From an uncultured Victivallales bacterium (GTDB lineage: Bacteria; Verrucomicrobiota; Kiritimatiellia; UBA8416; SLMC01), in assembly GCA_964646045.1 (NCBI GenBank), contig CAZYAW010000088.1, positions 239-64,238 of the forward strand: 64,000 nt of DNA. The letters run 5' to 3'. Every line of letters begins with the position of its first letter. Positions within the stretch are counted from its first letter, which is position 1. This document shows, in pieces, positions 16,898-37,989 of this stretch. The notes under the pieces were generated by a model, which worked only from the letters and a program-made list of their open reading frames with translations, searched no databases and was not told the origin of the DNA. The position numbers were made by a program, and so were the translations under genes.

Positions 16898-17326
16898 TCA
16901 GGCCGCTGCGGACGCTTCGGCGAACCTTTTCTCGATCTCCTTGATCAGCGTCGACAGGGCGACAGGCTTGAGCAGCAGCGAGCAGGAAGGATTTCTGCGC
17001 ACCATTTCCTCGATGTCTTCGGGCGGCAGATACCCGGTGAAAAAAATAATATTGGGTTCCGCCATACTCTGCTCCTCGCAGAACATGCGAATTTCGTATT
17101 CCGCCGCCCGCCCGTCCATGACCGGCATGTGGATGTCCATGACGATCAGATCGTGCTTGTGGAGGCGGAAGGCCTCGACCGCATCGAATCCGTTGGACGC
17201 CACCTCCACGCGATCATAGGGGAAATGATCCTGCAGCGCTTTCTGGTAGGTTTTCAACACGGCCGATTCGTCATCCACAATCAGTATTTGGCGGGGCCGA
17301 TGCGAACCCCCGTTTGCCGAATTCAT
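16898..17326 (-). CDS. Single-domain response regulator (CheY-like receiver)
   Basis: ILIVDDE, a phospho-acceptor Asp in LIVMDIHMP and the conserved Lys (LLLKPV). 142 aa with no output domain. Confidence 0.75.
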   Translation of the reverse strand: MNSANGGSHRPRQILIVDDESAVLKTYQKALQDHFPYDRVEVASNGFDAVEAFRLHKHDLIVMDIHMPVMDGRAAEYEIRMFCEEQSMAEPNIIFFTGYLPPEDIEEMVRRNPSCSLLLKPVALSTLIKEIEKRFAEASAAA

Positions 17327-17484: not shown

Positions 17485-18384
17485 CTACCGTCTCCGCCTT
17501 CTCGACAAACGATTCGAAAGATACCCGGACAGAATGGCGTCCAGCCTTTCGTCGGTGGCGATATCCGTCAGGTCGTAGCGAAAACGCGCGCAGACCTCGC
17601 GAATCGCCGCCAAATGACGCTCCCTCTCCCTCATATAGGCGCCAACCAGATCTTCCGGATCGCAGAGAAGACGGCCTTCGCCCTCGAGTCCGCGGAAGAT
17701 GGTCTGGCCCACAAACGGAAAATCCCTTTCCGTGGGATCCTCGATATGGAACAGCATGACATCGTGCCCCATATAGCTCATCTGGCCTAGACCCTTGACC
17801 AGCGTGTCGGTTTCATCGACAAAATCGCTGATCACCACCACGACGCCCTTGTTCTTCATTTGCGGCGCAGCGTTCAGCATGGCCCGCCCGATATCGGTCT
17901 TGTCGCCCGGCTGCATCTTGGTCATGACATCCAGCGTGTTGCGAAAATGCGAACCCGATCCCTTGGCGCCCAGAAACGAACGGATGCGTTCGTCGAACAG
18001 AACGACCCCGAAGGTATCCTTCTGCTGCATCATCAAATACGCGAGCGTGGCGACGACCGTGGAAGCGTACTCGTACTTGGACAGGGCGGCCTCTTCGCTT
18101 TTAAAGAACATCGAGGCGCTGGTATCCAGGAAAAAGTACATCGGCATGTTGGTTTCCGCCTCGTACTGTTTCACGAAGAAACGGTCCGTCTTGGCGAACA
18201 CCTTCCAGTCCAGATGCTTGGTGTCGTCGCCCTGCACGTACTGGCGATGCTGCGCGAACTCGGTGCTGATGCCCCGCAACCGGCTCTTGTGAATGCCCAT
18301 CATCAGGCTTTCCGCGAGACGGAAGCTGCGCACTTCCAGTCCCTTGACGCGGCTGACGACATGCGGATCGAAAATGTCTGCCAT
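17485..18384 (-). CDS. DUF58 (MoxR-associated vWA-like) protein
   Basis: DUF58 signature region (HRQYVQGDDTKHLDWKVFAKTDRFFVKQYE). One-nt TAATG junction with the upstream MoxR gene. Confidence 0.75.
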   Translation of the reverse strand: MADIFDPHVVSRVKGLEVRSFRLAESLMMGIHKSRLRGISTEFAQHRQYVQGDDTKHLDWKVFAKTDRFFVKQYEAETNMPMYFFLDTSASMFFKSEEAALSKYEYASTVVATLAYLMMQQKDTFGVVLFDERIRSFLGAKGSGSHFRNTLDVMTKMQPGDKTDIGRAMLNAAPQMKNKGVVVVISDFVDETDTLVKGLGQMSYMGHDVMLFHIEDPTERDFPFVGQTIFRGLEGEGRLLCDPEDLVGAYMRERERHLAAIREVCARFRYDLTDIATDERLDAILSGYLSNRLSRRRRR

Positions 18385-19577
18385 TATGCGGCCACCATGT
18401 TGAGCAGTTCATCTACAATCTTCTGGCGGGTTATGCCCTCGGCTTCGGCGGCGAAGTTGGGCTGAATGCGGTGGCCCAGAACGGCGTGCGCCACCTCCTT
18501 GACATCGTTGACGGTCACTTCATTACGTCCGTCCAGAACGGCCACGGCCTTGCCGCCAATGACCAGATACTGGCAGGCTCGCGGACCGGCGCCCCAGGAC
18601 ACCCACTTGCGCACGAACTCCGGCGCGGACGGCATGTCGCTACGGCTGGAACGGACCAGCTTGAGAATATAGTTGATCACGTCGTCGCCTATCATGACCT
18701 TGCGCACCAGCGCCTGCAGCTCGATGATTTCCTCGCGCGCCAGCACCGGCTGAATGTCCGGCTTGTAGCCGGACGTCGTCATGTCCAGAATCTGCTTCTC
18801 CTCCTGTTCACGGGGATAGCCGACGTTGACTTGGAACATGAAACGGTCCATCTGGGCTTCGGGCAACGGATAGGTGCCTTCCTGCTCGATGGGGTTCTGC
18901 GTGGCCAGCACGAAAAAAGGCGGCTCGAGGGCGCGCCGCTTGCCGCCCACCGTCACCTGCCGCTCCTGCATGGACTCGAGCAGCGACGCCTGGGTCTTGG
19001 GCGGCGTACGGTTGATTTCGTCGGCCAGCAGAATGTTGGTGAAGATCGGCCCCTCGATAAAGCGGAAACTGCGTTCGCCGGTGCTTTTGTCCTCCTGAAT
19101 GACTTCGGTGCCCGTAATGTCGGAAGGCATCAGGTCGGGCGTGAACTGCACACGCTTGAAATTGAGCGAGAGACTGGAGGCCAACGTACTGACCAGCAGC
19201 GTCTTGCCCAGGCCCGGGACACCCATGAGCAGACAGTGACCCTGCGAGAAGAGACTGACCATGGTGAGCTTGACCACTTCGTTCTGGCCGACCAGCGCCT
19301 TGCGAACCTGCGTCATGATCTTTTCGTTGGCCTCGCGCAGTTTGCCGATCTTGGCCATATCGTCGGCCGTCCATTCCTCCTGCTGCGTCATGACATAGGG
19401 CGTTTCCGGCTCTTCCTCCTTGACCGCCGCCGCGGCGGACGGCGCGGATCCCGCCTCGACAACGTCTTTCTGCTCGACGGTAAACACATTGCCGCATTTT
19501 CCGCATTCGGCTTCCTTGCCCAGCATGTCGGTTTCGCTTTCGTATGGCTGTTCGCACTTGGAACACTTGAACTTCAT
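18384..19577 (-). CDS. MoxR-family AAA+ ATPase with N-terminal C4 zinc-ribbon
   Basis: N-terminus MKFKCSKCEQ...CGKCGN (MJ0042-type ribbon), then MoxR motifs (GVPGLGKT Walker A, LADEINR Walker B). Confidence 0.8.
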   Translation of the reverse strand: MKFKCSKCEQPYESETDMLGKEAECGKCGNVFTVEQKDVVEAGSAPSAAAAVKEEEPETPYVMTQQEEWTADDMAKIGKLREANEKIMTQVRKALVGQNEVVKLTMVSLFSQGHCLLMGVPGLGKTLLVSTLASSLSLNFKRVQFTPDLMPSDITGTEVIQEDKSTGERSFRFIEGPIFTNILLADEINRTPPKTQASLLESMQERQVTVGGKRRALEPPFFVLATQNPIEQEGTYPLPEAQMDRFMFQVNVGYPREQEEKQILDMTTSGYKPDIQPVLAREEIIELQALVRKVMIGDDVINYILKLVRSSRSDMPSAPEFVRKWVSWGAGPRACQYLVIGGKAVAVLDGRNEVTVNDVKEVAHAVLGHRIQPNFAAEAEGITRQKIVDELLNMVAA

Positions 19578-19587
19578 GATCTTCCTC

Positions 19588-20760
19588 CTAGGGTTTCCCT
19601 TTGTTTCCTGTTCCGTTTGCCGTTTGACGATTATTCCGGCGTCCGACTTTTTTGAGGGCCGACCAGCGGCCGCGCAACCATTGGCCGCCCGGAACGGACG
19701 CCAGACCGGCGGTCGCCTGTTTTTCTATTTTGAGCACGTCGCGCATCCAGATCGAGCCCTTGGGCACGGTATTGGCCACCGCATCGCGCAGCATGGCCTT
19801 GATCACATATTTGCCGTCGCGGCCCTTGGCCTGCGCCCGGAAGTCCACCAGCAGCCGATGCGCCAGGACCGGATAGGCCACTTCCATGATATCCTGTTTC
19901 GTCACGTGCCGGCGACCGCAGGACAGGGCAATGACCTTGGCCAGCTTGATCAGCGCCTGCGTGGCGCGCGGCGAAGCGCCCAGCCGCACGTTGTCCACCA
20001 CGGCACGGCAGGTGGAAGCTTCTTTCGGGCGACTGGAGCGGACGATCGACATGGCAAAGGCCTTGACGGACGGCACGACCGGCACCTCCTGCGCCAGCGC
20101 CTGCATGGCCAGAATCGTTTGCGGATCGGTTACGGCCCGGATCTCGGGCCGGTAGGTGCCGGTCGTGCTGCGCACAATGGCCCGCTCCTCGCTTTCCGTC
20201 GGATAGTCCTGTTCGATCATCATGATGAAGCGATCGACCTGCGCCTCGCCCAGCATGAAGACGCCCTCGTGATCGAGCGTGTTCTGCGTGGCCACGATCA
20301 TGAAGGGTTTGGGCAGAAAATAGGTTTGCCCGCCCATCGTGATCTGCTTTTCCTGCATGACTTCCAGCAGCGCCGCCTGGGACCGGGCCGGACTGCGGTT
20401 GACTTCGTCGGCCAGCACCATATTGGCGAAAACCGGGCCTTTGAAAAAATGGAAGCTCCGCTCGCCGGTCTGGGCGTTGCGCTCCAGCACTTCCGTCCCG
20501 GTGATATCCGTCGGCAGTAGATCGGGCGTGAACTGAATGCGCCCGTGGTCGAGTCCCAGAATGTCCGAAAGCGACTTGACGATGAGCGTGCGCCCCAGCC
20601 CCGGAAACCCCTTCAGCAGAACGTGCCCGCCGGCGAAAACGGCCGCCAGCAAATGGGTGATCACCTGTTCCTGACCCATGACGATCTTGGCCATCTCCCG
20701 GCGAATCGCATGAAAATTGTCGTAAAACTCCTTGGTGGAGATCGAACCGTTCCCGTTCAT
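19588..20760 (-). CDS. MoxR-family AAA+ ATPase (second paralog)
   Basis: GFPGLGRT Walker A and LADEVNR Walker B. GGAGG Shine-Dalgarno precedes the downstream MoxR gene. Confidence 0.8.
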   Translation of the reverse strand: MNGNGSISTKEFYDNFHAIRREMAKIVMGQEQVITHLLAAVFAGGHVLLKGFPGLGRTLIVKSLSDILGLDHGRIQFTPDLLPTDITGTEVLERNAQTGERSFHFFKGPVFANMVLADEVNRSPARSQAALLEVMQEKQITMGGQTYFLPKPFMIVATQNTLDHEGVFMLGEAQVDRFIMMIEQDYPTESEERAIVRSTTGTYRPEIRAVTDPQTILAMQALAQEVPVVPSVKAFAMSIVRSSRPKEASTCRAVVDNVRLGASPRATQALIKLAKVIALSCGRRHVTKQDIMEVAYPVLAHRLLVDFRAQAKGRDGKYVIKAMLRDAVANTVPKGSIWMRDVLKIEKQATAGLASVPGGQWLRGRWSALKKVGRRNNRQTANGTGNKGKP

Positions 20761-20792
20761 TTCATCCTCGCTTCCCGCTGCGCGTACGCCTT

Positions 20793-22040
20793 CTACTGCG
20801 CCGCAAACTTCAATACGCGCGCCGCGCCCCAGTTGGCGACATCGCCAATGTCCAGATCGCCGCCGCTGACGACTTTGAGCGTCAACATCTTGACCCCTTT
20901 GACGGGGACCGAAACCGAGAGCGAACGCGCATCGGAACCCTTGACCAACGGGCTCTTGTACAGGGACCGGCCGTCGCCGAGCACTTCGAAAACCACGCTG
21001 CCGCGCTTGCCCATGCGCGTATCGACACCGACATCCGACTGGAACTTCTCGTAGCGCCCGCCCAGATCGAAGGTCAGGGCGGCATCGGCATGCACGCCAA
21101 TGCCCCAGGGGTAGTTCTGGCCCGCAATGGACAACACGTTGCCGTGACAGTTGAAGTCCATTTTGTAGGGTTGCGGCGGCATCAAAATGGTCTGTTCCTC
21201 AACCTTGACCGGATCGATCTGGGAAAGGTATTGTACCTTGCCGCCCAGCACCTGCACCAGCGAAATTTCGTCCAGATCGATATGCAGCGGTTTCGGCATC
21301 CAGTCCGTCTGGAACGCCCATTCGCGGGAGCGGATGTGCGCCAGGCGTCCCGAAAGAACGCTGCGATCGCGACCGGTCAGGGCCAGCCGCAACTCGCCCT
21401 TCCAGGGCTCGACTTTGGCGCGGGCCACATCGGCCATGCGCACGCCGCGCAAATACATGATATTAAACGAGCGGACCTGCAGCAAGTCGTCGATATCCAT
21501 GTGCAGCGCCGTCCGTTCCAGACCGCGCACCACGCCGGTAATCTCCGAGCCGCGCCGGTCCACCAAAGCGTCGCGGTATGCCAGGCCGGGAATAGCCCGA
21601 CTATCGACCAGCTCCTCCGCCCGGAAACTGGCGAAGCCCATCATGGGCTGCGTCACGAACCCGCGCAAATGGGACATATCCAGAAAAACCGTCCCGGCCA
21701 TCGGGGTATCGACCTGCAGCTTGTCGCCTTCGTGTCCCAGAATCTGTCCGCGCAAATAGCCGCGTCCAACAAAACGCATCTCCTGGGTACCGGCCTGGGT
21801 CAGCAGCGGATCGCGCCCGAAAAAACGAATGGCGACAATATCCTCCATGGCAATGACCCGTTCCTTGCCCTCGGGCAGAAACACCGCCACCTTGTTGCCG
21901 TCTTCGACGCGCTGCACCAGACCGTACACGCGGGTATTGTCGGCCAGCCAGATCTCTTCCCCTCGCGCCCCGTGCACCGTACCGCAAAACAGCGCCAAAG
22001 CCATGCAGACCGAGGTTCGCCATGTCATTCTTTTCACTGT
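20793..22040 (-). CDS. Secreted protein with C-terminal NPCBM (NEW2) carbohydrate-binding-like domain; start GTG 22040 or ATG 22028
   Basis: Signal-peptide-like MTWRTSVCMALALFCGTVHG. The last ~130 aa carry the NPCBM pattern (GIGVHA...GSVVFEV.GDG..L....DIGDVANWGAARV). AGGGAGG Shine-Dalgarno 6 nt upstream of the GTG. Confidence 0.6.
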   Translation of the reverse strand, partial: TVKRMTWRTSVCMALALFCGTVHGARGEEIWLADNTRVYGLVQRVEDGNKVAVFLPEGKERVIAMEDIVAIRFFGRDPLLTQAGTQEMRFVGRGYLRGQILGHEGDKLQVDTPMAGTVFLDMSHLRGFVTQPMMGFASFRAEELVDSRAIPGLAYRDALVDRRGSEITGVVRGLERTALHMDIDDLLQVRSFNIMYLRGVRMADVARAKVEPWKGELRLALTGRDRSVLSGRLAHIRSREWAFQTDWMPKPLHIDLDEISLVQVLGGKVQYLSQIDPVKVEEQTILMPPQPYKMDFNCHGNVLSIAGQNYPWGIGVHADAALTFDLGGRYEKFQSDVGVDTRMGKRGSVVFEVLGDGRSLYKSPLVKGSDARSLSVSVPVKGVKMLTLKVVSGGDLDIGDVANWGAARVLKFAAQ

Positions 22041-25000
22041 GTACCTCCCTCTTCCAGGAACGATGCGTAATAGGCGGAAATCAAAGCCTTGTGTTTGGAC
22101 GGCAGCTCGTGGCTCAAGGCGCGAATCATGATTTCGCGGAGCTCGGCCGGCAATTTGACGTCCTGACGGATGCGCTCCAGAATATAGGCGGCGGTCTGTC
22201 TTTTTTCCCACTCCTCCTGCGTCATCTCCGTGTGCTCGACCGGCTTGGTCGCGGCGACTTCTTCCGCCGAAAGCTCGCGCTCGTCGAGCAGGCCGCGAAT
22301 ATTCTGCATGGCGCGCGCCAGCAGATTCATGGCTTGCTCGCCGGCGGCGATCGCGGCGGCGGCGTCCTTCTCCAGATTGGCCAGCGAAACACCCTTGTAA
22401 TCGCGAATCTCGCCGATACCCAGCGCCAGCACCTTGGCCTGCATGTCGGGCGTAAGGGCCTCGACACGCGCAACGGCGCTCTGCATGATCTTGGTCGCCT
22501 GCGCCAAACTTTTTTCCGCCTGACCGCGATTGACTTTCTCTATGGCTACTGCGGTCGCCCCCTGCGGACGATGTTCGGCAAAGCGGCGCACCTTTCTGAG
22601 AACGTCGTTCTGCAGCAGAGTGGCATGATTGATCTCGGCCGTCATGGCGGCCACCTCGTCCAGGTTCTTGTCCCGCACAATGTACCGGCGGTCGAAAGCG
22701 TCCTTGCCGCCGCGGCGCTTGTTCTCCTCCACCGCTTCGCCGATCAGCTTGCGCTGGGAAACAAAACTCATGGCATCCTTCAGCGTGGACATGGCATCGG
22801 CCTGCAACTGTTGCGTATGCTTTTGCAGCGCCTGCTCCTCGACCAGCTTGAGCGACTGCAGGAATTCGGTGCGCACTTGGCCGAGCATACCGGCCAGTGG
22901 CTTGTCCTCGGGCTTGTCGGCCTCCTTGACCGCCACGTCCAGCGCCTGTACGGCCCGATTCTGGAAATCCTGAATAATAAAGCGTTTGAGACGAATATAG
23001 CGCGGCATTTCCTTTTCCGAGCTGTTGTCGTTCAGGTAGCGCGTGCGGGCCAGGACGCTGTCCTGGGTCGACCAGGCCAGATCCAGCGCCATCGAGAGGC
23101 GGTCGGATCCCACCGGCAGGGCCTTGATCATATCCTCCCAGGTCATACGTTCCGGCGGGGCTCCCCCGGCGTCGGCCACCTGCACGGGCTCCGCTGCGTC
23201 TTCCCCTTCCCCGGGTTTTGGCACTTCAACCACTTGCCCCAGCGTCGTGACCGGGACCATGGCCAGCGTAATGGCCGGATCTTCGTCCAGACGCTGACCC
23301 GCCAGGATCAGACCGCCCTTGACAATGTTGAGGGCATGCAGCGCCGCCTCCTGATCCTTGATGATCTGGTAGGGCTGGTTGTTGGCAATGGCTTTGGCGG
23401 CCCGATCCAGAAATTCGTTGACCCGATGACTGCGCAACTGCTCGTAGGCGACTTCCAGCGGCTCCTGAATGCTGGTGCGCTTTTGCAGCCGGGCATTGTT
23501 CTGCATGTGAACCAGTTGATTTTCCACCTCGGTCTCCACGTCGAGCATGGTCTTCTGGCGTGCCCCCAAGGTCATCAGCGCATCCAGATCCTTTTCCTGG
23601 ATGTCCCCCGTCTCCAGACCGATCAGGCGCGGCGCAATCTCGCGCGTGAGAACGAGCACTTCCTCCTGCTCCTCGTGCAGCAGGGTGGTGCGCACGGCGC
23701 TGATTTGCAAGTCGCGCCAGTCGAAGATGCGTTTGAGGGCCATTTCCAGATTGAGCAGCGCGTATTTCTGGTGGTCTTTGAAGGCCGCATAGGCTTCCGC
23801 GCGCTTGCCTTTCAACGCGGCTTCCGCCGCCTCGGCGGCGGTCTGCGGGCGAGCGTCGCGAACTTTCTGCTCGATCTCCTTGTGATAATCATCCAGAACC
23901 CTTTGCAGGTACTGGGCCACCACATTGAGGCGGGCCGACATGAACTCCAAGTGCATGCGGTTCTGCTCGTAGCCGGCGGTCAGGTCGCGCAGATGCATGT
24001 TCATGGCCCGCGCGGCGCGAATGGAAGCGTTCTGCCGATCCGTCATGCCGGTCCACAGCGGATCGTCCTCCGCGCCGGTGCCCTTGGCCGCCCATTCGGC
24101 GGCCATTTGCCAGGCCTGCAACTGGTTTTCCCAGGCGATGCGGGCTTCCGCCTCGATGGCGCGCGCCCGCTCAATGGATTCCAGGTGGTACTGACTGGGA
24201 CGCACCAGATTGATTTCGTACGAGACGGAGTCCACCAGACCCTTGCCGGTCGGATTGACGTCCTTGGCCCGCAGAAAATAGCGCAGGATGCCCGCCTGCG
24301 GAAGGTCCTCCATGCGACTGAGATCCCAGTTGAAGCGGTGCTCGCTGCGCGTTCCGCGCTGCGGAATGCCGCCCGCCGTGCGACTGTCGAGCGCACGGGG
24401 TTCCTGGCCGTCCATGTGGTACATGAACTGCACTTTTTCCAGTCCGTAGTCGTCGGTGACGCGCAACATGACGTTCACGGCCAGATTGCGCGTTCCCGAC
24501 AGGTTGCGGCCGGGCGCGACGATCTCCACCTCGGGCGCATTGTCGGGAATGACGCTGATTTCATATACCTGCGGACGGGGTTCGCGGTAGCCGTGTTCCT
24601 CGTAAAGCTCGATGCGGTAGGAACCCTCCTTCTCCAAAAACATGCTGTGCTCGAAAGTCGTGCCGCGCCGTCCCAGCGTCAATACGACGGGTTCTTCGTC
24701 CTCGAAGACGTAGCGCGCCTCCGTGAGGCGCATGGACGACTCGAACTCCAGGCGCACCTTGGTGCCCTCCAGTCCCTGCAACTGCCCGCTGGCCACCGAG
24801 CGATTGGGAATGCCGGCATACACCGGATAGTCGTAGTGCGCCGTCACGCTGCGGATGTAGGGGCGCTGAATGATCTGCACCACAAACGTTTCGGTCAAAT
24901 AGTCTCCCCCGCGAATATTGAAACGAATCTCCTCGCGCACATCCTTGAAATTGTACTCGAAGGTATCGTCGGCGCGCACCTCGATATTCTCGCGAATCCA

Positions 25001-25717
25001 ATGCCCGGTTGTGCGGTCGCGATAGGACATCACCACATGCGCGGGCTTCTCGCCCTCCACCGATCCCTTGACGGCCAGGGACTCCATGGCGGGAATGGTC
25101 CAGCCGCGCTCGGGTTCCTCGATCACAATCGTGGTGCGATGCGGCCAGCGCAGCGAGGAAAACGGATTGAAGAAGCGGACCAGACCGATCGCCGCATACT
25201 CGTGCAGCACGACGGAAAGTCCCACGAAAACGGCCAGCACAATAGCCGCGCGGCGGGTCCAGAGCGTGACTTGCGCGGTTTTAACGGCCTCCGCCTCGCG
25301 GGCCTGTTCGGCGACGGGCGCCACGTCGTGAATGGCACTGTCCGCCAGCGCTTTTCCAGTCTCGCCTTGCGTTTCCTGGATGTCCTCGTTTTCGATCAGC
25401 TCGTACAAATCGAGGAGCATGGCCCGCTCCGGCGGCAGAACCGAATCCATGTACCCCAGGGTCTGCTTATGGTTCCAGGGTGTCGCCAAAGGCCTGACGA
25501 TCGTCCACCAGACGGCGGCGCCGATCAGGGCCAGATAGGCGACCAGATTGACGAAACGCACAAAGCCGCCGAAATGTATCCACCAGTCGAGCAGCAGCAG
25601 CGGCGGCAGGACGACCAGGCCCAGCGCCACCAGACGCGCGATGCCGATCCGCTTTATGGCGCTTCTGAACTTGGCCTGAAAATCCGCACACAGGCCGGCG
25701 AGGTTGCCGAGTTCCAT
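22034..25717 (-). CDS. Large (1227 aa) membrane-anchored beta-rich plus long alpha-helical/coiled-coil protein (DUF4175-like, MoxR-operon associated)
   Basis: 2-3 N-terminal TM helices, a mid beta-rich region, and a C-terminal ~600 aa that is E/K/A/L-rich with heptad-like spacing. Balanced composition, unlike the R/G-rich antisense ORF 22022..25795. Confidence 0.55.
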   Translation of the reverse strand: MELGNLAGLCADFQAKFRSAIKRIGIARLVALGLVVLPPLLLLDWWIHFGGFVRFVNLVAYLALIGAAVWWTIVRPLATPWNHKQTLGYMDSVLPPERAMLLDLYELIENEDIQETQGETGKALADSAIHDVAPVAEQAREAEAVKTAQVTLWTRRAAIVLAVFVGLSVVLHEYAAIGLVRFFNPFSSLRWPHRTTIVIEEPERGWTIPAMESLAVKGSVEGEKPAHVVMSYRDRTTGHWIRENIEVRADDTFEYNFKDVREEIRFNIRGGDYLTETFVVQIIQRPYIRSVTAHYDYPVYAGIPNRSVASGQLQGLEGTKVRLEFESSMRLTEARYVFEDEEPVVLTLGRRGTTFEHSMFLEKEGSYRIELYEEHGYREPRPQVYEISVIPDNAPEVEIVAPGRNLSGTRNLAVNVMLRVTDDYGLEKVQFMYHMDGQEPRALDSRTAGGIPQRGTRSEHRFNWDLSRMEDLPQAGILRYFLRAKDVNPTGKGLVDSVSYEINLVRPSQYHLESIERARAIEAEARIAWENQLQAWQMAAEWAAKGTGAEDDPLWTGMTDRQNASIRAARAMNMHLRDLTAGYEQNRMHLEFMSARLNVVAQYLQRVLDDYHKEIEQKVRDARPQTAAEAAEAALKGKRAEAYAAFKDHQKYALLNLEMALKRIFDWRDLQISAVRTTLLHEEQEEVLVLTREIAPRLIGLETGDIQEKDLDALMTLGARQKTMLDVETEVENQLVHMQNNARLQKRTSIQEPLEVAYEQLRSHRVNEFLDRAAKAIANNQPYQIIKDQEAALHALNIVKGGLILAGQRLDEDPAITLAMVPVTTLGQVVEVPKPGEGEDAAEPVQVADAGGAPPERMTWEDMIKALPVGSDRLSMALDLAWSTQDSVLARTRYLNDNSSEKEMPRYIRLKRFIIQDFQNRAVQALDVAVKEADKPEDKPLAGMLGQVRTEFLQSLKLVEEQALQKHTQQLQADAMSTLKDAMSFVSQRKLIGEAVEENKRRGGKDAFDRRYIVRDKNLDEVAAMTAEINHATLLQNDVLRKVRRFAEHRPQGATAVAIEKVNRGQAEKSLAQATKIMQSAVARVEALTPDMQAKVLALGIGEIRDYKGVSLANLEKDAAAAIAAGEQAMNLLARAMQNIRGLLDERELSAEEVAATKPVEHTEMTQEEWEKRQTAAYILERIRQDVKLPAELREIMIRALSHELPSKHKALISAYYASFLEEGGTQ

Positions 25718-25730
25718 AGCAAGCTACTCC

Positions 25731-26927
25731 TTATCTCTCGTAAATGGGCAGATACCCGTAGGGGGCCTGCAAAGCAATGGCCGCCATGGCCGTGACATAG
25801 ACCGTGTTGCCGCGATGGTCGGCGAATTCGCCGTCCTTGCGGCGGGCGGCCCGCAGAATCTCCACCGCCTTCTTGTAGTAGGGCAGGTAGTACGTGTCGC
25901 CGGTGGTATACATCGCCAGACTGCCGAAGAAAATGCCGTACACGAAATACTCGCGATCCAGAAAATCCTGCACGGTATAGCGCTGATAGTCGTAGGCGAT
26001 GCGGTCGCGGGTCGGCGGGATCAGCATGTGGTCGAGCGAGCCGTCGTTGACCAGCGCGATGATGCCGGTTCCGCTCATGCTGGGATTGGCCGTCAGCCCG
26101 AAATGACGGTAGCGGAACGTGCCGTCCGGCAACGCGCATCTCTCGACATAGGCCATGCCTTTGCGCACCACGTCGGCGGATACGGTGAACCCCGACTTCT
26201 TGGCCGTACGCAACACCCAGAGCGCATTGCCGGTCACCGATATGTCGCTGGCGCCGTCCGGCGAATAGGAATAGCGCCATCCGCCGTCGCGCTTCTGGGC
26301 CTGCTGCATGCCCTCCAGCGCCCGCGTGATGATGGGCCTGAGCCCGGGTTCCCAGGGCATGTCGCCGAAGTTCATCAGCAGCACGAGGGTCGCCAGCAGA
26401 TGTTCGTACATGGGACCCAGCTCGTTGGCCGTCTTGCCGACCAGAATGCCGCTGCTGGTCTGCACGTTGCGCGTCAGGAATTCAATGCCGCGCGTGATCT
26501 GGCGTCCGTACCGGCCGATGTTGGGGCGACTGCCCTCCGACATGAAAGCCATCATGGCCAGAGCCGCCACGCCGGTATTGGACTGAAAATCCTTGTCCGT
26601 CCAGCCGCCGTCGGCGTCCTGCATGGTGACCAGATACTTCAAGGCGCCGTCGATCATCTCCTTGACTTCGTCGGTGAGCAGTTCCTCGGCCATACGGCTG
26701 CGCTCGGTCGCCCGCGGCAGCACCAGAAACGCGGGATCCTTGCCCGGGAAGACCGGCCCCTTTTCCGAAGCCTTGCGCTTAAGCAGATCTTCCACCGCCT
26801 TTTCCTTGGCTTTGGCGTCGGCCGGCGCGCTGGTGGGCCCGAACAGGGCCGTTTCGAACGCGATCCCGACCACGACTGCGGCGACCAGCCGCCTGCTCAG
26901 CGAACTCGATCCGGTCCGTTTTCTCAT
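25731..26927 (-). CDS. Secreted prenyltransferase/squalene-cyclase-repeat (alpha/alpha toroid) protein
   Basis: Repeated DADGGW / RDGGWRY motifs and a signal-like N-terminus (RRLVAAVVVGIAF). ATG at 26927 overlaps the upstream gene stop (ATGA). Confidence 0.55.
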   Translation of the reverse strand: MRKRTGSSSLSRRLVAAVVVGIAFETALFGPTSAPADAKAKEKAVEDLLKRKASEKGPVFPGKDPAFLVLPRATERSRMAEELLTDEVKEMIDGALKYLVTMQDADGGWTDKDFQSNTGVAALAMMAFMSEGSRPNIGRYGRQITRGIEFLTRNVQTSSGILVGKTANELGPMYEHLLATLVLLMNFGDMPWEPGLRPIITRALEGMQQAQKRDGGWRYSYSPDGASDISVTGNALWVLRTAKKSGFTVSADVVRKGMAYVERCALPDGTFRYRHFGLTANPSMSGTGIIALVNDGSLDHMLIPPTRDRIAYDYQRYTVQDFLDREYFVYGIFFGSLAMYTTGDTYYLPYYKKAVEILRAARRKDGEFADHRGNTVYVTAMAAIALQAPYGYLPIYER

Positions 26928-29275
26928 AGCAACCCCCACCATTTTCTGAGCGACCATTCCGCTCCCACGAGGAACAGGAACAGGAACAGGAATCCGATGC
27001 CGTCCCATACTTCGACCATAACGGAACGACGCAGCACCTGAAACTCCGTCGGGATCTCGTCGACGAGCGAACGGAGATCCTGCATGTTGCGATAGTCGAA
27101 ATACTTGCCGCCCGTTTTCTCCGCCAGCGCGCGCATGCCCTCGACATCGGCGCTGGTATCGCGATGCTCCATGGACTGCATGTGGACGCGGAAGACATGC
27201 GAGACGTCGAAAATGGGTCGCGCCTCCGAATCGGCGCCCGGCGCGGCCTGCGTACAGCGCACCACGGTGCTGCCCGTGCGGCGGGCCCGGTAGTGGCCGG
27301 TATAGAGCATGCGACCGCCCGAATCAGGCTGCAGCGGGATCATCTGCTCGTCCTTTTGCGGTGTGGTGACGGAGGCGAAGAGCGGCACGCCGCGCAGTTG
27401 AGCCATCAGGGCCGGATCCAGAACGCGCAGGCGAACCAACACGTTTTCGCCGGGCGAATAAGTGTTGCGTTCGGTATCGAGCGCCACCTGCTGCTGGGAT
27501 CCCTTGAGCCGCGTTTCGCCGAGATAGCGAATCGCACGCGTCCAGAGCCGATCGTAGTCGAAGGTTTCAAAAGGAAAGCGCCAGCGCCAAAGGCTATTGA
27601 TGCCGGAATAGAAAACCGCCCCCTCGCCGTAGCGCTGAATCACCATCAGCGGCACGGTGTCGGCGGCCAACCCGCCGCCGTCGGCGCTCGGCTCGGTCTC
27701 GAGCAGCGTAATGGCGTCCGGCTTGACCCGTTCGACGGGGGCGTGCCAGTAGAACTTCGGGAAAGTCGCCCAGATTTTCTCGTTGTCCTCCTCGTGACTC
27801 GATGCCAGCATAATGGGATGGTCCCGCCCGATCGTGGTGCGCCGCACCGCCCGCTCGCGGTCGAAGACCTGAAAATAGTTGGGCATCAGGTTGCGATCAA
27901 CTTCGACCGGCAGCAGGTTGCGCATGCGCACGGCGTGCACCTGGACGAATTTCGCCATGCCGTGGTTGCGCCCGGCCATGATCAGCAGGCCGCCGCCACG
28001 CCGCACCATATCGTCGATGCCGGTGATCTGCTGGGTCGTAATCTTGTTGGGGTCGGCGTCGAAGAGAATGCAGACGTCGTAGCGTTGCCAGTCGGCCAGA
28101 TCCTCGGGCAGCCGACTCAGCGTGACATTGCCCTGCTGAACATAGTCCACGTCCGCATTCTGCAGCCAGGTGGACAGCTCCAACACCGGGTCGCGCAGCA
28201 GCGCCGGCACCAGATAGTAGTATTCGCGCGTGGGCTCGCCCGCGATCAGAATGACACGCAAGGAGCGACGCACCACCTTGACATGGACGGAAGCCTCGTT
28301 GTTTTCCAGGTTCACTTCGTCGGGCTGGATCGGAAGCGAGACCTTGAACTCGCGAATGCCTTCGACCTCGGGCACGGTGGCGATCGGCACGCGGTTTTCG
28401 CCGCGGCGCAGTTGCACGCGCCGACTGGCCACCTGTTCGCCCTCTTCCGTGAGGGTCAGCGTCGTCACCAGTTGATCCTGAATCTGATTGACGATTTTCA
28501 AGTCGAAAATCAGAACGTCGCCCAGACTGGCTTCGGCTTCCACAAGGACGTCCTCGATGCCCAGGTCGCGCAGGGGATGTTCGGTGCCGAAAACCACCGT
28601 ATGCACCGGCACATTGGCCCGCGCCGCCTGTTCGGCCGCCACTTCGAGACTGGCGCCGCTGGTCTGGCGTCCGTCGCTCAGCAGCACGATCCCGGAAATG
28701 CGTTCGTCGGACAGATTGCGCAGCGTGGCGACGATGGAGTCGCCGACATTCGAGTATTCGCCGGTCGGTTCGGCGGCTTTGGTGAATAGCTCGTCCCGTG
28801 TCATCGGCGCCTGGCTGCGATTTTCGCGATAGGGCATTTCGCGCAGCAGCCGCAACATGTCGGAAAAGGTGAACACACGGACGCGATGCGACAGCGTAAG
28901 CGGTTCCTGCAGCGTGTTGACGGCCTCCTGCATGGTGTCGTAGCGAGTGCGCCGGTCTCGGGGCCGGGCCTGGACCATGGGATTTTCGAGCGTATCCGGG
29001 AAGTCCATGCTCAGGGACTCGTCCACGATCATGGCTACGGCGGGCAGACGGCGCGTGGTGTGGACCAGCGTCACGGCCGGGCGCGCCAGCGCCAGCAGGC
29101 CTAAACCGGCCACCAGCACACGTAAGATCCAGAGCGTACGCTTCTGCCGCGGGGTCAGCCGTCGGGCCTGGCGAGCCTCGCTGCGATAGAAGCGCGCGTA
29201 CACGAACAGCAGCGCGACACCCAGTACGACCAGGAACACGATAAACGGTTGGCTTGTCAGCATCGTTGGCTTCAT
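26924..29275 (-). CDS. Large vWA-domain membrane protein (BatB/BatA-like), N- and C-terminal TM anchors
   Basis: Two N-terminal TM helices, a vWA MIDAS-like motif (IVDESLSMD), and a C-terminal TM (GIGFLFLFLFLVGAEW). Confidence 0.6.
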   Translation of the reverse strand: MKPTMLTSQPFIVFLVVLGVALLFVYARFYRSEARQARRLTPRQKRTLWILRVLVAGLGLLALARPAVTLVHTTRRLPAVAMIVDESLSMDFPDTLENPMVQARPRDRRTRYDTMQEAVNTLQEPLTLSHRVRVFTFSDMLRLLREMPYRENRSQAPMTRDELFTKAAEPTGEYSNVGDSIVATLRNLSDERISGIVLLSDGRQTSGASLEVAAEQAARANVPVHTVVFGTEHPLRDLGIEDVLVEAEASLGDVLIFDLKIVNQIQDQLVTTLTLTEEGEQVASRRVQLRRGENRVPIATVPEVEGIREFKVSLPIQPDEVNLENNEASVHVKVVRRSLRVILIAGEPTREYYYLVPALLRDPVLELSTWLQNADVDYVQQGNVTLSRLPEDLADWQRYDVCILFDADPNKITTQQITGIDDMVRRGGGLLIMAGRNHGMAKFVQVHAVRMRNLLPVEVDRNLMPNYFQVFDRERAVRRTTIGRDHPIMLASSHEEDNEKIWATFPKFYWHAPVERVKPDAITLLETEPSADGGGLAADTVPLMVIQRYGEGAVFYSGINSLWRWRFPFETFDYDRLWTRAIRYLGETRLKGSQQQVALDTERNTYSPGENVLVRLRVLDPALMAQLRGVPLFASVTTPQKDEQMIPLQPDSGGRMLYTGHYRARRTGSTVVRCTQAAPGADSEARPIFDVSHVFRVHMQSMEHRDTSADVEGMRALAEKTGGKYFDYRNMQDLRSLVDEIPTEFQVLRRSVMVEVWDGIGFLFLFLFLVGAEWSLRKWWGLL

Positions 29276-31485
29276 GCGGTTTTCATTCCCCTCGCTCTAC
29301 GCCGGCCGAATCGCAAGGCCAGAAACGCCTCGACGCCCAGCACGATCAGCACGATCCAAAGAAAAAACTGCGAAAACTCCGTGACGGCATGCATTTTGGC
29401 CGCCAAGTCCTCGATCGGAACCTCGGGGTTGACCCACGTGTACTGGCCGCGCCCGAATGCGTTTCTGAATCCGGACTCGGACAGGCGGCTGAGGTCCCCC
29501 TGTTCGGAACGGGGATTGACGACGAAGCGGGTGCGCGGCACCACGCCGGGCAGCGTATCCACGAAACGGTAGACTCCCTGCTGGTCGGTATCCTCGTAGC
29601 GCACGAACCAGGCGTCCTCCTGATCCGGACGGGCTTGCGGGGTCAGGCGCGAACGCTGTCCGTCGGGCGCCTGCAGAATCAGGTGCTGGGCGCTGACGAA
29701 AACCAGTTGCTCGAAGGGGTCGCCCGCATCCACATTGACCTTCTCGTCCGGGTTGCCCATCAGGTAGCGCAGCGTATCCTGAACGAGAACGGGGTATTCG
29801 ATCACGGCGGGCAGGTAGGTCCAATGCGCGCCGGCCGTCGCGTTGGCCAGCAGCACGCGTCCGCGACCGTACTCCTTCTCGATCAGGAAAGGCGTGCCGT
29901 CGGACATCGCCAACGCGACCCGGGCGCCCTCCTGCAGATTCAGATTGTAGAGGACCGAAAAACGGGCGTCGCGGGCGACGCTGGCGCCCAGGGCGTGCAG
30001 GGCGGGATGCGTGGAGGCCCCGAAATTCAGGTAGGGGCGCGCATCGGAATCGGCGGCGTCGGCCGTGATCGTCTTGACATCGAGCAGCGCGCCGGGCAAC
30101 GGGCCCTGGCCTTCCGCGTAGAAATGACGGTTGTAGTCGAAGGCGTTGATGTTCGGCCCGAGAAAGAACCACAGGGAACCGCCGGCGGCGGCATACTGTT
30201 TCAGCCGCGCGCCCAGCGATTCGTCCACGTGGGCCAACTGGGTGGCGATCATCACGGGATAGCGGTCGAGATTTTCGTAGCGCAGCATCGAGGGATGAAT
30301 CGACGTGGCGGAGAAGCGCGTGACCTTTTCCATGGCCGGATGCGTGGGCGGCGCGATGGCGCGCGTCAGGAAGACGCTTTCCATGCGCAGCGGATCGACG
30401 GCCGTTTCCGCTTGCGTTTCCGGGGCCGCCGCCCCGGTCACCGGCGCCGTCTCGTCCAGAATCAGCACGGGAAACGTCTCGGGCACGGTGCAGAGGTAGG
30501 CGCGCTGGTTGTCGATGAGGTGCTGGTCGCCTTCGACCACGGCCTCGACGACGTATTCGCCCGGCTGCGCGAAGGTGTGATCGAAACTGACGACCGCCGG
30601 TTTCTCGCCCGGTTCGAAGTAGCGCACGTCCTTGCTGTCGCCGTCGACCACCAGCGTCACCGAAGGCCGGGCGTCGCGCGGCGGACGCCCCCAGGTTCCC
30701 ACCTGTACCTGAAAGGTGACGGGCAATTTCGTGGAAAGGGCGAACTCCGTCGGGCGCAATTCGGAGAGAACATAGTTGAAGTCGTGCTTGCTGCCCACGT
30801 CCACCAGGTAAAGATCGTTCTTTTCGCCCAGTTCGCCCAGCAGCCGGGACGTTTCGGCGGCCAGCCCGCCGGGCGGCGACCACGTGTTACGCTGAAAGTC
30901 CGAGAAGACATAGACTTCCGCCGCCGTTTCGTCTTCGGCGCGTTTGAAGTACTCGCTCATCCACTGCAGCGCGGAGGCGGCCGGAACGGCGCCCAGCGTG
31001 GCTCGCAGGGCATCGACCTTGGCGGCTGCGGTGTGGGCGTCGGTCTCCTTTTCCAGTACGCCCTCGGCGCGCGTGCCGAAGGACAGGACGGTAATCAGAG
31101 CATCGCCCTCGACCCCGCGGATCAGACCGGACGCGCGCCGCTGGGCCACGCCGAAGGCCGTAGTGACGCCCACCTGCTGATGCATGCTGGCCGTCGCGTC
31201 CAGGGCGATGACCAGATGACGCCGCCGTCCGTCGCCCATCATACCGTGGCGCACTTGCGGACGCGCCAGTGCCAGCGCCAACAGCAAAAGCAGCAGCGTG
31301 CGCACCAGCAGCAGGATGCGATCCTGCCGTTTAATGTTCTCCTGATCCTTGTTGCGCAGCAGAAAGCGCAACGTCGGCAGATCGACCTGACGCTTGCGTC
31401 GGCGAAACAGCCATTCAATGATCCAGGGAAGAGCGGCCGCCAGAAGGGCCAACAGCATGAGAGGGTTGCCGAAAAAAGAGGTCAC
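29272..31485 (-). CDS. BatA-like vWA-domain membrane protein; start probably GTG 31485 (or ATG 31458)
   Basis: BatA-type N-terminus (NPLMLLALLAAALPWIIEWLFRRRKR...LRFL), vWA motif (IALDATASM), and a C-terminal TM helix. GGGAG Shine-Dalgarno upstream of the GTG. Confidence 0.6.
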   Translation of the reverse strand: MTSFFGNPLMLLALLAAALPWIIEWLFRRRKRQVDLPTLRFLLRNKDQENIKRQDRILLLVRTLLLLLLALALARPQVRHGMMGDGRRRHLVIALDATASMHQQVGVTTAFGVAQRRASGLIRGVEGDALITVLSFGTRAEGVLEKETDAHTAAAKVDALRATLGAVPAASALQWMSEYFKRAEDETAAEVYVFSDFQRNTWSPPGGLAAETSRLLGELGEKNDLYLVDVGSKHDFNYVLSELRPTEFALSTKLPVTFQVQVGTWGRPPRDARPSVTLVVDGDSKDVRYFEPGEKPAVVSFDHTFAQPGEYVVEAVVEGDQHLIDNQRAYLCTVPETFPVLILDETAPVTGAAAPETQAETAVDPLRMESVFLTRAIAPPTHPAMEKVTRFSATSIHPSMLRYENLDRYPVMIATQLAHVDESLGARLKQYAAAGGSLWFFLGPNINAFDYNRHFYAEGQGPLPGALLDVKTITADAADSDARPYLNFGASTHPALHALGASVARDARFSVLYNLNLQEGARVALAMSDGTPFLIEKEYGRGRVLLANATAGAHWTYLPAVIEYPVLVQDTLRYLMGNPDEKVNVDAGDPFEQLVFVSAQHLILQAPDGQRSRLTPQARPDQEDAWFVRYEDTDQQGVYRFVDTLPGVVPRTRFVVNPRSEQGDLSRLSESGFRNAFGRGQYTWVNPEVPIEDLAAKMHAVTEFSQFFLWIVLIVLGVEAFLALRFGRRRARGMKTA

Positions 31486-31841
31486 AAAACGCTCCCGTAT
31501 CAAGTTGATTGTCCACCCGCAACGCTTATGCGGCATTCCTGCCGTCGGCACGGGAGCCGAGCGCCGGGGACGCGGCCCCGTGCCAACAACCTTTGAGCCG
31601 ACATTCCCGCCCTAGGCAAAGTCGCAACTAGCAAACACGATGGAAGTCATTAACAGGCATTGGGGACATTGTCAATAGACAAACAAAAAAAAAACCGAAA
31701 CCGCGCGCAAAGGCCGGCAGATCTCGTTACGCCCCGAACCCCGCCGCCTTGTATCGCGGGGGACGACTCCCAAACGAGAACGGCTGGGCGAACGCACATT
31801 GCTGTTGACGACGCATGGCCCGATGCGCTATGGGTGGCGGC

Positions 31842-32324
31842 ATGCGATGGCCCGAAACCAAAATTTACTCGCGACAAGCGCTGGCGGAGGAATGTCGGAA
31901 GCTCCGCAAACAGGGGAAAACGGTGGTTTTCACCAACGGATGCTTCGACGTGCTGCACGCCGGGCATCTGGACTACCTTCTGTTTGCGCGCAAGCAGGGC
32001 GACCGCCTGATGGTGGGCCTGAATTCCGACGCGTCCGTACGACGCAACAAGGGGGAAGAGCGTCCCGTCGTCAACGAAAACGAGCGCCAACGCCTGCTGG
32101 CGGCCCTGGAAGCCGTGGACGGCGTTACCCTGTTCGACGAGGACGAGCCGCGCGCGCTGATCGAAACGCTGTTGCCGGATGTTCTGGTCAAGGGCGCAGA
32201 CTGGTCGCACTACGTTTCCGGCCGGGAAGCCGTGGAAGCGAACGGGGGACGCGTGGTTCTGGCGCCGCTGACGCCCGGTCGTTCGACCACCGATCTGATC
32301 CGGCGCCTGCGGGAGCGAACATGA
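31842..32324 (+). CDS. D-glycero-beta-D-manno-heptose 1-phosphate adenylyltransferase (RfaE/HldE domain II only)
   Basis: Cytidylyltransferase motif (VVFTNGCFDVLHAGHLDYL). About 160 aa with no kinase domain. The ATGA overlap onto hldD was checked against the sequence. Confidence 0.7.
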   Translation: MRWPETKIYSRQALAEECRKLRKQGKTVVFTNGCFDVLHAGHLDYLLFARKQGDRLMVGLNSDASVRRNKGEERPVVNENERQRLLAALEAVDGVTLFDEDEPRALIETLLPDVLVKGADWSHYVSGREAVEANGGRVVLAPLTPGRSTTDLIRRLRERT

Positions 32325-34917: not shown

Positions 34918-34990
34918 GCCCATGTAGCTCAGTTGGCAGAGCACATCCTTGGTAAGGATGAGGTCAGCGGTTCGATCCCGCTCATGGGCT
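34918..34990 (+). tRNA. tRNA-Thr (anticodon GGU)
   Basis: Cloverleaf: acceptor GCCCATG/CATGGGC, D-arm TAGCTCAGTTGGCAGAGCA, anticodon loop TTGGTAA, T-arm GGTTCGATCC. Confidence 0.85.
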
Positions 34991-35043
34991 CCGCGGCCGC
35001 GACGAACGCGAAAAAACAGTAACACTCGTAAGGAGAGAACATC

Positions 35044-36252
<1,209 letters not shown>

Positions 36253-36306
36253 CGTTGAATTCTTCATTCGCGCCCTCTGGAAATCGGAAGAAGGCGGAGA
36301 TCGCTT

Positions 36307-36459
36307 ATGCCTAGGGAACTGGTGGTTCTGGCCTGCGCGGAATGCAAAAGGCGCAATTATACAACGGACCGCAACAAGAAATCCGGATCCGGCCGTCTGG
36401 AAATCACGAAGTACTGCCGCTTCGACAATAAGCGGACTGTACACAAGGAAACGAAGTAA
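36307..36459 (+). CDS. rpmG: 50S ribosomal protein L33
   Basis: Translation [50 protein letters not shown]. Too short to appear in the ORF track. Confidence 0.85.
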
Positions 36460-36476
36460 AGCCGACTTTTTCCGGA

Positions 36477-36553
36477 AGGCCAGTAGCTCAATTTGGCAGA
36501 GCGCCGGTCTCCAAAACCGGAAGTTGGGGGTTCGAGTCCCTCCTGGCCTGCCA
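36477..36553 (+). tRNA. tRNA-Trp (anticodon CCA)
   Basis: Acceptor AGGCCAG/CTGGCCT, anticodon loop CTCCAAA, T-loop GGTTCGAGTCC, encoded 3' CCA. Canonical position between rpmG and secE. Confidence 0.9.
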
Positions 36554-36715
36554 TGCGAGGGTCTTCCCGTTGCTCCACCAAATGGAAAAGCGTGCGGCGA
36601 TTTGATGGGTAAACGGTTAGCGCCGGGTTTGCTGCAGGTTGGCGTGGCGTTGTGCAGGCAGGCCGCCAACGCGCAAGAGGTCGGACAAGCGAAGGACCGC
36701 TCGGGAGCGTGCGCA

Positions 36716-36934: not shown

Positions 36935-36942
36935 GCGCCGTT

Positions 36943-37494: not shown

Positions 37495-37537
37495 CGTACG
37501 CGACAACGAACGAGACGGAAGGGCGAGGAATAGATTC

Positions 37538-37966: not shown

Positions 37967-37989
37967 GCCCTCATTCGGAGTTCTACGCT

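Follow-up and report, generated by a model that had tools for sequence, protein, structure and literature searches.

The window, i.e., the whole stretch of 64,000 nucleotides analysed here (contig CAZYAW010000088.1 of an uncultured Victivallales bacterium, numbered from its first letter), contains on the minus strand a run of eight consecutive open reading frames (ORFs), at 17485-31551 in the ORF listing. This run encodes two MoxR-type AAA+ ATPases, a DUF58 protein, two double-anchored vWA proteins, a divergent DUF4175 homolog, an alpha/alpha-toroid protein and an NPCBM/CBM51 lectin-like protein. The most distinctive feature of the cluster, absent from the original prediction made on this DNA, is a conserved replacement of Lys by Arg in the Walker A motif of one of the two MoxR paralogs. 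The eight genes, in the order of their transcription, and the stretch preceding them are as follows.

31486-31814, no strand: intergenic stretch between the operon and a divergent cytidylyltransferase-like gene, presumed promoter region (sequence reading)
29272-31485, minus strand: BatA-like protein with BatA-N and vWA domains, 737 residues (Pfam, NCBIfam, hydrophobicity scan)
26924-29275, minus strand: second double-anchored vWA protein (vWA2), 783 residues (Pfam, hydrophobicity scan)
25731-26927, minus strand: single alpha/alpha-toroid protein, secreted or membrane-anchored, 398 residues (PF13243)
22034-25717, minus strand: divergent DUF4175 homolog, a membrane protein (BIG), 1227 residues (hhalign, AlphaFold2 model)
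20793-22037, minus strand: NPCBM/CBM51 lectin-like protein, predicted periplasmic, 414 residues (PF08305, structure model)
19588-20760, minus strand: MoxR1, MRP-type MoxR AAA+ paralog, 390 residues (AAA_3 and AAA_lid_2)
18384-19577, minus strand: MoxR2, MRP-type MoxR AAA+ protein with a C4 N-terminus, 397 residues (AAA_3 and AAA_lid_2)
17485-18384, minus strand: DUF58 protein, vWA-like, predicted cytoplasmic, 299 residues (PF01882)

The tight coupling of eight minus-strand genes at 17485-31485, as stated in the original prediction, is borne out by the ORF listing and by the reading of the junctions. The start of the vWA2 gene overlaps the end of the BatA-like gene in an ATGA (29275/29272); a second ATGA is found at 26927/26924, and the MoxR2 and DUF58 genes share one nucleotide in a TAATG at 18384. 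A further overlap, proposed with its start codon at 22040, is not found, position 22040 being ACA, i.e., no start codon. GTG 22037 is the most likely start of the NPCBM gene, as judged from the sequence: this codon lies 6 nt past a GGGAGG and overlaps the TGA stop at 22036-22034, and it gives a protein of 414 residues, the same length as that of a database protein 94% identical to it. ATG 22028 is an alternative start. The other intergenic gaps are of 13, 32 and 10 nt, each with a GGAG-like Shine-Dalgarno sequence before the following gene. For the BatA-like gene the most plausible start is GTG 31485, 6 nt past a GGGAG. The gene calls of JGI for identical proteins have the same lengths (390, 397, 299, 398 and 1227 residues, the call of 398 residues being 100% identical to the toroid). 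In the stretch 31486-31814 a consensus scan found no sigma-70-like site and no promoter was identified. The promoter and terminator scan gave nothing useful, and the Rfam scan gave no match inside the operon region (two tRNAs only, both outside).

Pfam was searched with each product. AAA_3, DUF58, VWA, NPCBM and SQHop_cyclase are above cut-off in their respective products; the assignments made from the letters alone (DUF58, two MoxR/AAA_3, NPCBM, squalene-cyclase-repeat toroid, vWA and BatA-N plus vWA) are thus all backed by Pfam. The exception is the 1227-residue protein, for which a direct match to the DUF4175 profile had been envisaged and none was obtained.

MoxR1 matches AAA_3 (PF07726) with 183.4 bits and AAA_lid_2 with 58 bits; the values for MoxR2 are 212 and 54.5 bits, respectively, and all four are above the curated cut-offs. 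The solved structure closest to MoxR2 is 2R44 (E 3.7e-78). The two proteins are 43.6% identical to each other. When all loci described below are considered, they fall into two orthogroups, with 51-100% identity within and 39-47% between them, and the duplication is therefore older than the spread of the cluster.

The Walker A motif separates the two orthogroups. That of MoxR2 is GVPGLGKT in the window and GVPG[L/I]GKT in 18 orthologs out of 18. That of MoxR1 is GFPGLGRT in the window and GxPGLGR[T/S] in all 21 members of the orthogroup, i.e., Lys is replaced by Arg throughout. MoxR1 thus departs from the canonical GxxGxGK[T/S] and is a member of the family by homology, but an atypical one. Both orthogroups retain the other AAA+ motifs, namely Walker B (DExxR), the sensor 1 Asn, the Arg finger (DRF) and sensor 2 (GxxPR). 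MoxR1 was used in a HMMER scan of 1.84 billion representatives, which gave 23,649 matches; among the best 150 of these, GRT is present only in the two closest single-domain proteins and nearly all the others have the canonical Lys. A related and simpler locus (L028) has a single MoxR, in agreement with the view that a pair of MoxR paralogs is an unusual trait. This single MoxR is closer to the GKT paralog (50% identical to MoxR2) than to MoxR1 (41.5%), hence the K-to-R paralog is the derived one.

The N-terminus of MoxR2 (residues 5-28) reads CSKC-x16-CGKC, i.e., CxxC-x16-CxxC, and is followed by an acidic linker. The C4 zinc ribbon announced for one MoxR is thus visible as a motif, but its score does not reach the Pfam cut-off (Zn_ribbon_4, 16.8 bits for a cut-off of 30.3) and it is present in only about 7 of 15 MoxR2 orthologs. 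The top match to MoxR1 in the full library is a database protein of 916 residues (P0294) that contains an FHA domain and two tandem MoxR modules, both with GLAKT as Walker A. It is a natural MoxR-MoxR fusion, which indicates that paired MoxR modules occur elsewhere.

Three of the eight products are of vWA type. The DUF58 protein, the gene of which adjoins that of MoxR2, matches PF01882 (145.6 bits) and VWA_2 (37.6 bits), and its metal-ion-dependent adhesion site (MIDAS) DxSxS is found in the 18 sequences aligned, including that of the window. The BatA-like protein matches PF07584 BatA (56.6 bits), VWA_2 (30.2 bits) and TIGR02226 (56.5 bits). It has transmembrane-like segments at 9-27, 56-74 and 706-724, thus an N-terminal double-transmembrane BatA domain, a vWA domain, a GATase1/GH42M-like region and a C-terminal transmembrane helix; a MIDAS-like motif DxTxS is present in 14/14 aligned sequences, that of the window included. 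vWA2 is built in a comparable manner: two N-terminal transmembrane helices (11-29 and 53-71), a vWA domain (PF00092, 23.9 bits for a cut-off of 23.8), a DUF7408/ThuA-like region (DUF7408, 35.2 bits) and a C-terminal transmembrane helix (752-770). Its DxSxS motif is conserved in 16/16 aligned sequences, again with that of the window. In both BatA-type proteins the two N-terminal transmembrane helices flank a strongly basic loop.

Transmembrane and signal segments were obtained by a simple hydrophobicity scan; sidedness was derived from the positive-inside rule together with the analogous case of Borrelia BB0173, a BatA-type protein the vWA domain of which was found by experiment to be periplasmic (PMC5700661). 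On this basis the bodies of the BatA-like protein and of vWA2 are predicted to be periplasmic. The scan detects no transmembrane-like segment in DUF58, MoxR1 and MoxR2; these three would be cytoplasmic, and the other five proteins would be anchored in the inner membrane or exported across it.

The 1227-residue protein has no direct Pfam match (E <= 0.01) and no NCBIfam match, and its orthologs P0014 and P0016 are likewise without a Pfam family. However, the profile of the family aligns with the database protein P0048 with an hhalign probability of 99.9 (E 3.5e-31) over residues 113-612. P0048 matches PF13779 (DUF4175) with 75 bits and its gene adjoins a DUF4159 gene. Since P0048 is a bona fide member of PF13779, the 1227-residue protein is a diverged DUF4175 relative, by a homology that is transitive, via P0048. 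The AlphaFold2 model (pLDDT 84) is consistent with the DUF4175-type architecture, i.e., N-terminal transmembrane helices and then a large extracytoplasmic region: in it, N-terminal membrane helices lead to three beta-sandwich domains (195-505), after which long helices occupy about 700 residues. The N-terminal transmembrane helices number three, with a loop of about 75 residues predicted to be cytoplasmic. A Foldseek search of the PDB with this model gave generic tandem Ig/MG-type matches only, thus no solved structure has the same architecture. Within the family, conservation peaks at the membrane-proximal junction, in the beta domains and in the first helical block; invariant residues are C10, F13 and R28 in the N-terminal tail and W81, D91 and E115 in the loop 78-151.

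MoxR/DUF58/BatA operons usually have a DUF4175 protein as their fourth partner. The 1227-residue protein, being DUF4175-like, is therefore a regular partner and not a new module. It is the «giant coiled-coil protein» of the original prediction.

The toroid protein matches PF13243 SQHop_cyclase_C with 39.8 bits (cut-off 26.1). It consists of prenyltransferase/squalene-oxidase-type repeats in a single barrel, with four DGG[W/F]-type repeats, and an N-terminal hydrophobic segment (14-32) may serve for export or as an anchor. The PF13243 match, a TIGR01787 match and the profile matches to squalene-hopene cyclases of the PDB lead to consider that the toroid could be an active squalene-hopene-type cyclase, in an operon that would modify or traffic membrane isoprenoid lipids. 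This is highly improbable for the following reasons: (i) squalene-hopene and terpene cyclases are two-barrel proteins of about 630 residues that contain DxDD and score above cut-off, while the toroid has 398 residues and one barrel; (ii) its NCBIfam scores are far below the cut-offs (TIGR01787: 41.8 bits for 322.7; TIGR01507: 31 for 431); (iii) the profile matches to the structures are short and cover repeat-level stretches only (E 3e-9); (iv) no DxDD motif was found on reading the sequence; (v) the N-terminal export or anchor signal puts the toroid outside the cytoplasm. An active squalene cyclase was thus rejected on size, scores and the missing DxDD. Nevertheless, the toroid may bind a lipid without catalysis.

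A second candidate was also set aside, namely a thioester protein (TED-like, as in alpha-2-macroglobulin) in which the large protein would be the MG-like partner. A precomputed PF07678 match in some toroid orthologs and complement C3/C5 chains among the Foldseek matches are in its favour, but the toroid has no CxEQ and the Ig matches of the large protein are generic.

The NPCBM protein matches PF08305 with 119 bits, above cut-off, and its domain has the CBM51 beta-sandwich fold. In the structure model (pLDDT 89, pTM 0.84) a signal helix precedes four five-stranded barrels (about 27-264) and a C-terminal NPCBM/CBM51 domain. The small barrels have weak Foldseek matches to chains of Pol II elongation complexes, which are taken here to be the KOW repeats of Spt5/DSIF; this is a hint, at the level of the model, that the barrels are SH3/KOW-like.

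NPCBM domains have been proposed as sensors of bacterial conflict systems (PMC8195603), and both MoxR proteins match PF20030 bpMoxR (47.7 and 38.1 bits). The cluster could thus be a ternary MoxR-vWA conflict system directed against invaders, which the NPCBM lectin would sense. The comparison with the published systems makes this very unlikely. Their NPCBM is intracellular, whereas the NPCBM protein of the window has a signal peptide, and none of their effector, VMAP, iSTAND, EAD or TERNS3 components was found by Pfam (PMC8195603). Moreover, the AAA_3 scores of the two MoxR proteins are four to five times their bpMoxR scores, and gene order and sequences are conserved across loci, with no sign of diversifying turnover. 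PADLOC gave weak generic AAA matches for one protein and none for the other seven; a defence system was rejected, in the absence of any relevant PADLOC match.

The same CBM51 module leads to another explanation, since CBM51 modules usually accompany glycan-degrading enzymes. The cluster would then be a periplasmic or cell-surface apparatus that captures or imports external polysaccharides, with CBM51 and the ThuA/GH42M regions handling the sugars and the MoxR pair providing power. The two BatA-type proteins do have weak similarities to ThuA and Glyco_hydro_42M, and in one relative (L002) a GH123 gene and a PcRGLX-like gene lie directly downstream of the cluster. However, these similarities are below the Pfam cut-offs (18.7 bits for 33.4 and 18.9 bits for 25.8, respectively) and presumably reflect a shared GATase1-like fold, which would be the simpler explanation. 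The conserved genes of the cluster include none for a glycoside hydrolase, a transporter or a TonB-type protein, and the downstream glycoside hydrolase genes are confined to L002. This explanation is thus considered quite unlikely.

The distribution of the cluster was established from exact look-ups and a scan of genome collections (19 loci), and then by tblastn mapping with the proteins of the window. More than 20 independent loci carry the same cluster; they come from uncultured Planctomycetota, with a Kiritimatiellae label on some of them. The full gene set is also present in the cultured Lignipirellula cremea (CP036433.1, about 5,306,000-5,332,100). The order BatA > vWA2 > toroid > BIG > NPCBM > MoxR1 > MoxR2 > DUF58 is found in every locus long enough to show it (L001-L026). 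The comparison of gene neighbourhoods thus yields the same eight-gene order in independent loci, at 32-83% protein identity: identity between loci is 32-63% for the large protein and reaches 83% for DUF58. About 47 full-length homologs of the 1227-residue protein are found in metagenomic data. The labels of the source records, taken as recorded, are Planctomycetota, Pirellulaceae, Planctomycetales, Gemmatales, Tepidisphaerales and Phycisphaerae, with Kiritimatiellae for the nearest relatives (labels of metagenome-assembled genomes, MAGs). The «unusual accessory modules» of the original prediction are instead the invariant core of a family. That the arrangement is uncharacterised holds for the literature searched (MoxR with NPCBM, Planctomycetes, BatA, DUF4175 and squalene-oxidase repeats), in which no description of the cluster was found, but it is not an isolated arrangement.

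Most relatives have up to four extra genes, giving clusters of up to 12 genes. In most loci these encode: (i) one or two NHL-propeller proteins of about 950 residues, between the toroid and the large protein; (ii) a protein of about 350 residues without Pfam match, between NPCBM and MoxR1; (iii) a TPR/PQQ-propeller protein of about 1600 residues, after DUF58. None of them is detectable anywhere in the 64-kb window, which therefore carries a reduced, core-only form.

Some loci deserve a separate mention. In L020 (4992-11915, a Planctomycetota MAG) the frame of the large protein stops matching after about residue 682, and a second, diverged set of BatA, vWA2 and toroid genes (40-44% identity) lies head-to-head beside the first. 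This second set suggests that paralogous toroid-containing modules exist, an assembly problem being also possible. In L001 (13756-15013) two gene calls (167 and 256 residues) stand in place of the NPCBM gene, and both halves match the single protein of the window; the gene is split or contains a frameshift. An identical MoxR2 protein is found on 15 contigs from several JGI metagenomes (e.g., 3300001335 'ML8_10001585') and on an NCBI contig of 81.8 kb, and the nearest relatives are MAGs named 'CSSed16-5cm'. The names of these records hint at saline or alkaline lakes as habitat.

The best-documented role of MoxR/vWA pairs is the maturation of a given enzyme (PMC3893208, PMC9976466, PMC13036017), with MoxR for methanol dehydrogenase, NorQD for NOR and CoxD for CO dehydrogenase as models. 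The cluster might accordingly be a dedicated maturation or metal-insertion chaperone for one periplasmic or membrane enzyme encoded elsewhere, and the MIDAS motifs conserved in all three vWA-type proteins are in line with this. It is nonetheless judged unlikely, since the more than 20 loci have no conserved enzyme gene in common, whether within the cluster or next to it. The conserved partners are instead large structural or binding proteins (Ig, helical, lectin, propellers, TPR), and three vWA-type proteins with a scaffold of 1227 residues far exceed the needs of a client-specific chaperone pair.

Downstream of the operon, a long envelope polysaccharide/lipopolysaccharide (LPS) gene cluster extends on the same strand (313-16874, minus). 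It also contains several GT4 glycosyltransferases and one GT2, together with the following genes.

10444-12006, minus strand: Wzy_C O-antigen ligase-like gene
8873-10258, minus strand: TPR protein
7596-8777, minus strand: LpxK
6550-7626, minus strand: GT9 heptosyltransferase
4968-6560, minus strand: MurJ
3723-4964, minus strand: T2SSE-type ATPase

Between this cluster and the operon (16898-17326, minus), 158 nt past the DUF58 stop, lies the gene of a stand-alone receiver-domain response regulator of 142 residues. The closest relative (L005) is alone in sharing this response regulator and the GT9-like gene in its flanks. Its response-regulator ortholog (67% identical) is located 2.8 kb downstream of DUF58, with a protein of 907 residues (Peptidase_M28 and Antibiotic_NAT) in between. 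The LPS context, common to the nearest relative only, is thus weak evidence and not a property of the family; the LPS/O-antigen surroundings give weak support to a role in the envelope.

On the other side, directly upstream and divergent (31815-33301, plus), a cytidylyltransferase-like gene (GCFDVLHAGH; PF01467, 69.6 bits) and an overlapping NAD-dependent epimerase gene may be heptose-type sugar-nucleotide genes. A housekeeping block follows a few kb from the operon (34918-47821), with tRNA-Thr, EF-Tu, tRNA-Trp and then rpoB (1263 residues); a gene for 1396 residues in the same block is probably rpoC, by position and size. These genes would be good markers for placing the organism.

The cluster can be compared with four kinds of known or related systems. 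The Rhizobium leguminosarum operon RL3499-RL3502 (cmdA-D) contains the same four classes (cytoplasmic MRP-type MoxR and DUF58, a double-transmembrane BatA-N protein and a large DUF4175-type membrane protein); RL3501 and RL3502 are taken here to be the BatA-N-type and DUF4175-type membrane proteins. In comparison, the window adds the K-to-R MoxR paralog, the second BatA-type vWA protein, the toroid and the CBM51 lectin protein. Its genes run in the inverse order, from the membrane proteins to MoxR-MoxR-DUF58, and its large protein is too diverged for a direct PF13779 match.

The Bat operons of Bacteroides, Riemerella, Leptospira and Borrelia share the MRP-type MoxR, DUF58 and vWA proteins of BatA/BatB type (PMC11834572, PMC5700661). 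Unlike them, the window has no BatC/BatE TPR protein and no BatD by Pfam, and its MoxR genes are sixth and seventh, not first; it has two MoxR proteins as well as toroid, NPCBM and DUF4175-like partners. The cluster of the window does not count as a classical Bat operon. It should be noted that relatives of the window cluster carry a TPR/PQQ giant after DUF58.

NorQ/NorD, RavA/ViaA and CbbQ/CbbO combine an AAA+ MoxR ring with a vWA co-factor bearing a MIDAS and are the template for the MoxR-DUF58 step proposed below. They belong to other MoxR subfamilies (CGN, RavA), and each has one ATPase only and acts on an enzyme client that is known, whereas the ATPase of the window is MRP-type and duplicated, without identifiable enzyme client.

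Finally, locus L028 (577-13929, present on many contigs) has the order DUF4159/FHA-MoxR/DUF58/BatA/vWA2-like/349-residue exported protein/DUF4175-like/220-residue exported protein. Its BIG-like and vWA2-like proteins are detectably homologous to those of the window, but its only MoxR is an FHA-MoxR placed first, and neither NPCBM nor toroid is detected in it by BLAST or Pfam. L028 is useful as an outgroup for the family. These comparisons lead to the conclusion that the cluster differs from the described versions by: (i) a duplicated MoxR with Arg in Walker A; (ii) a second BatA-type protein; (iii) a toroid; (iv) a CBM51/four-barrel protein.

With about even confidence, the eight genes are taken to be the core of a cluster that is specific to Planctomycetota, is an enlarged relative of the MoxR(MRP)/DUF58/BatA-vWA/DUF4175 operons (a class to which the Bat operons and the Rhizobium RL3499-RL3502 type belong) and acts in the ATP-driven assembly of an envelope scaffold. 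The most likely role is the building or maintenance of an envelope structure, in preference to a metabolic reaction. In MoxR/vWA systems a finger of the vWA protein enters the pore of the hexamer and ATP hydrolysis remodels a linker or client (PMC9976466, PMC13036017). On this model, MoxR1 and MoxR2 would form a ring, probably a mixed one, in which the GKT paralog would hydrolyse ATP and the GRT paralog would bind nucleotide as a slow or regulatory subunit. DUF58 would be the cytoplasmic vWA adaptor that plugs the pore of the ring, after the example of NorD and NorQ; it is the likely candidate for this part, being the sole vWA-type protein here that is predicted to be cytoplasmic. It would couple the ring either to the N-terminal tail and loop of the DUF4175-like protein, or to the transmembrane loops of the two BatA-type proteins. 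The candidate cytoplasmic handles are thus the basic loops of the BatA-type proteins and, in the DUF4175-like protein, the N-terminal tail and the loop 78-151.

ATP-driven pulling on such a handle would assemble or reset a periplasmic scaffold, made of the two double-anchored vWA/GATase1-like proteins and of the Ig-plus-helical DUF4175-like protein, which the CBM51 lectin protein and the toroid would dock to an envelope glycan or to another ligand. The parts predicted to be periplasmic (two MIDAS sites, three Ig-like domains, a long helical region, the toroid and the lectin with its four small barrels) look like a binding scaffold and not like an enzyme.

The original prediction of an envelope- or glycan-associated machine is in agreement with this as far as location is concerned, since the location fits the predicted topology and the CBM51 fold; the machine itself is put forward as a model. 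In the MRP subfamily, membrane integrity and cell morphology depend on RL3499 in Rhizobium (PMC3893208). This role fits, by analogy, the envelope location predicted for the cluster, and the favoured envelope role is consistent with the envelope phenotype of the RL3499 operon (PMC3893208).

Several points weigh against this interpretation. Both the mixed ring and a K-to-R paralog without activity are proposals, and some P-loop proteins tolerate Arg at the position of the Walker A Lys. The topology is a prediction from hydrophobicity, positive-inside reasoning and analogy. None of the eight products was found to contain a catalytic domain, and the LPS neighbourhood is not conserved beyond the closest relative. 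Lastly, the results for Bat-type operons are inconsistent: a deletion had no phenotype in Leptospira biflexa (PMC3557215), while effects on stress and virulence were observed in Riemerella (PMC11834572).

A more specific form of the scaffold interpretation is doubtful, indeed quite unlikely, in the present state of the evidence. In this form the ring would be obligately mixed, the K-to-R paralog would be a regulator that does not hydrolyse ATP, and the ring would power a lineage-specific trans-envelope assembly for a surface structure peculiar to planctomycetes, e.g., one of those for macromolecule capture. The assembly would comprise the DUF4175-like protein, the two vWA proteins, the toroid and the CBM51 lectin and, in most genomes, the NHL and PQQ propellers.

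MoxR/DUF58/BatA-type operons are found in Bacteroidota, spirochaetes, Rhizobium and Francisella and have no agreed function; the phenotypes of their deletion range from none to envelope or stress defects. The planctomycete family provides extra conserved partners (lectin, toroid, propellers) that give an indication of what the system contacts and are concrete candidates for work on binding and localisation. Its association of one canonical MoxR with one Walker A K-to-R MoxR is a natural asymmetric pair, tractable for the study of the regulation of MoxR rings, and since Lignipirellula cremea carries the full cluster a cultured host exists for experiments. If the trans-envelope assembly described above were true, the MoxR/DUF58/BatA/DUF4175 operons, a widespread class, would for the first time have a defined structural role.

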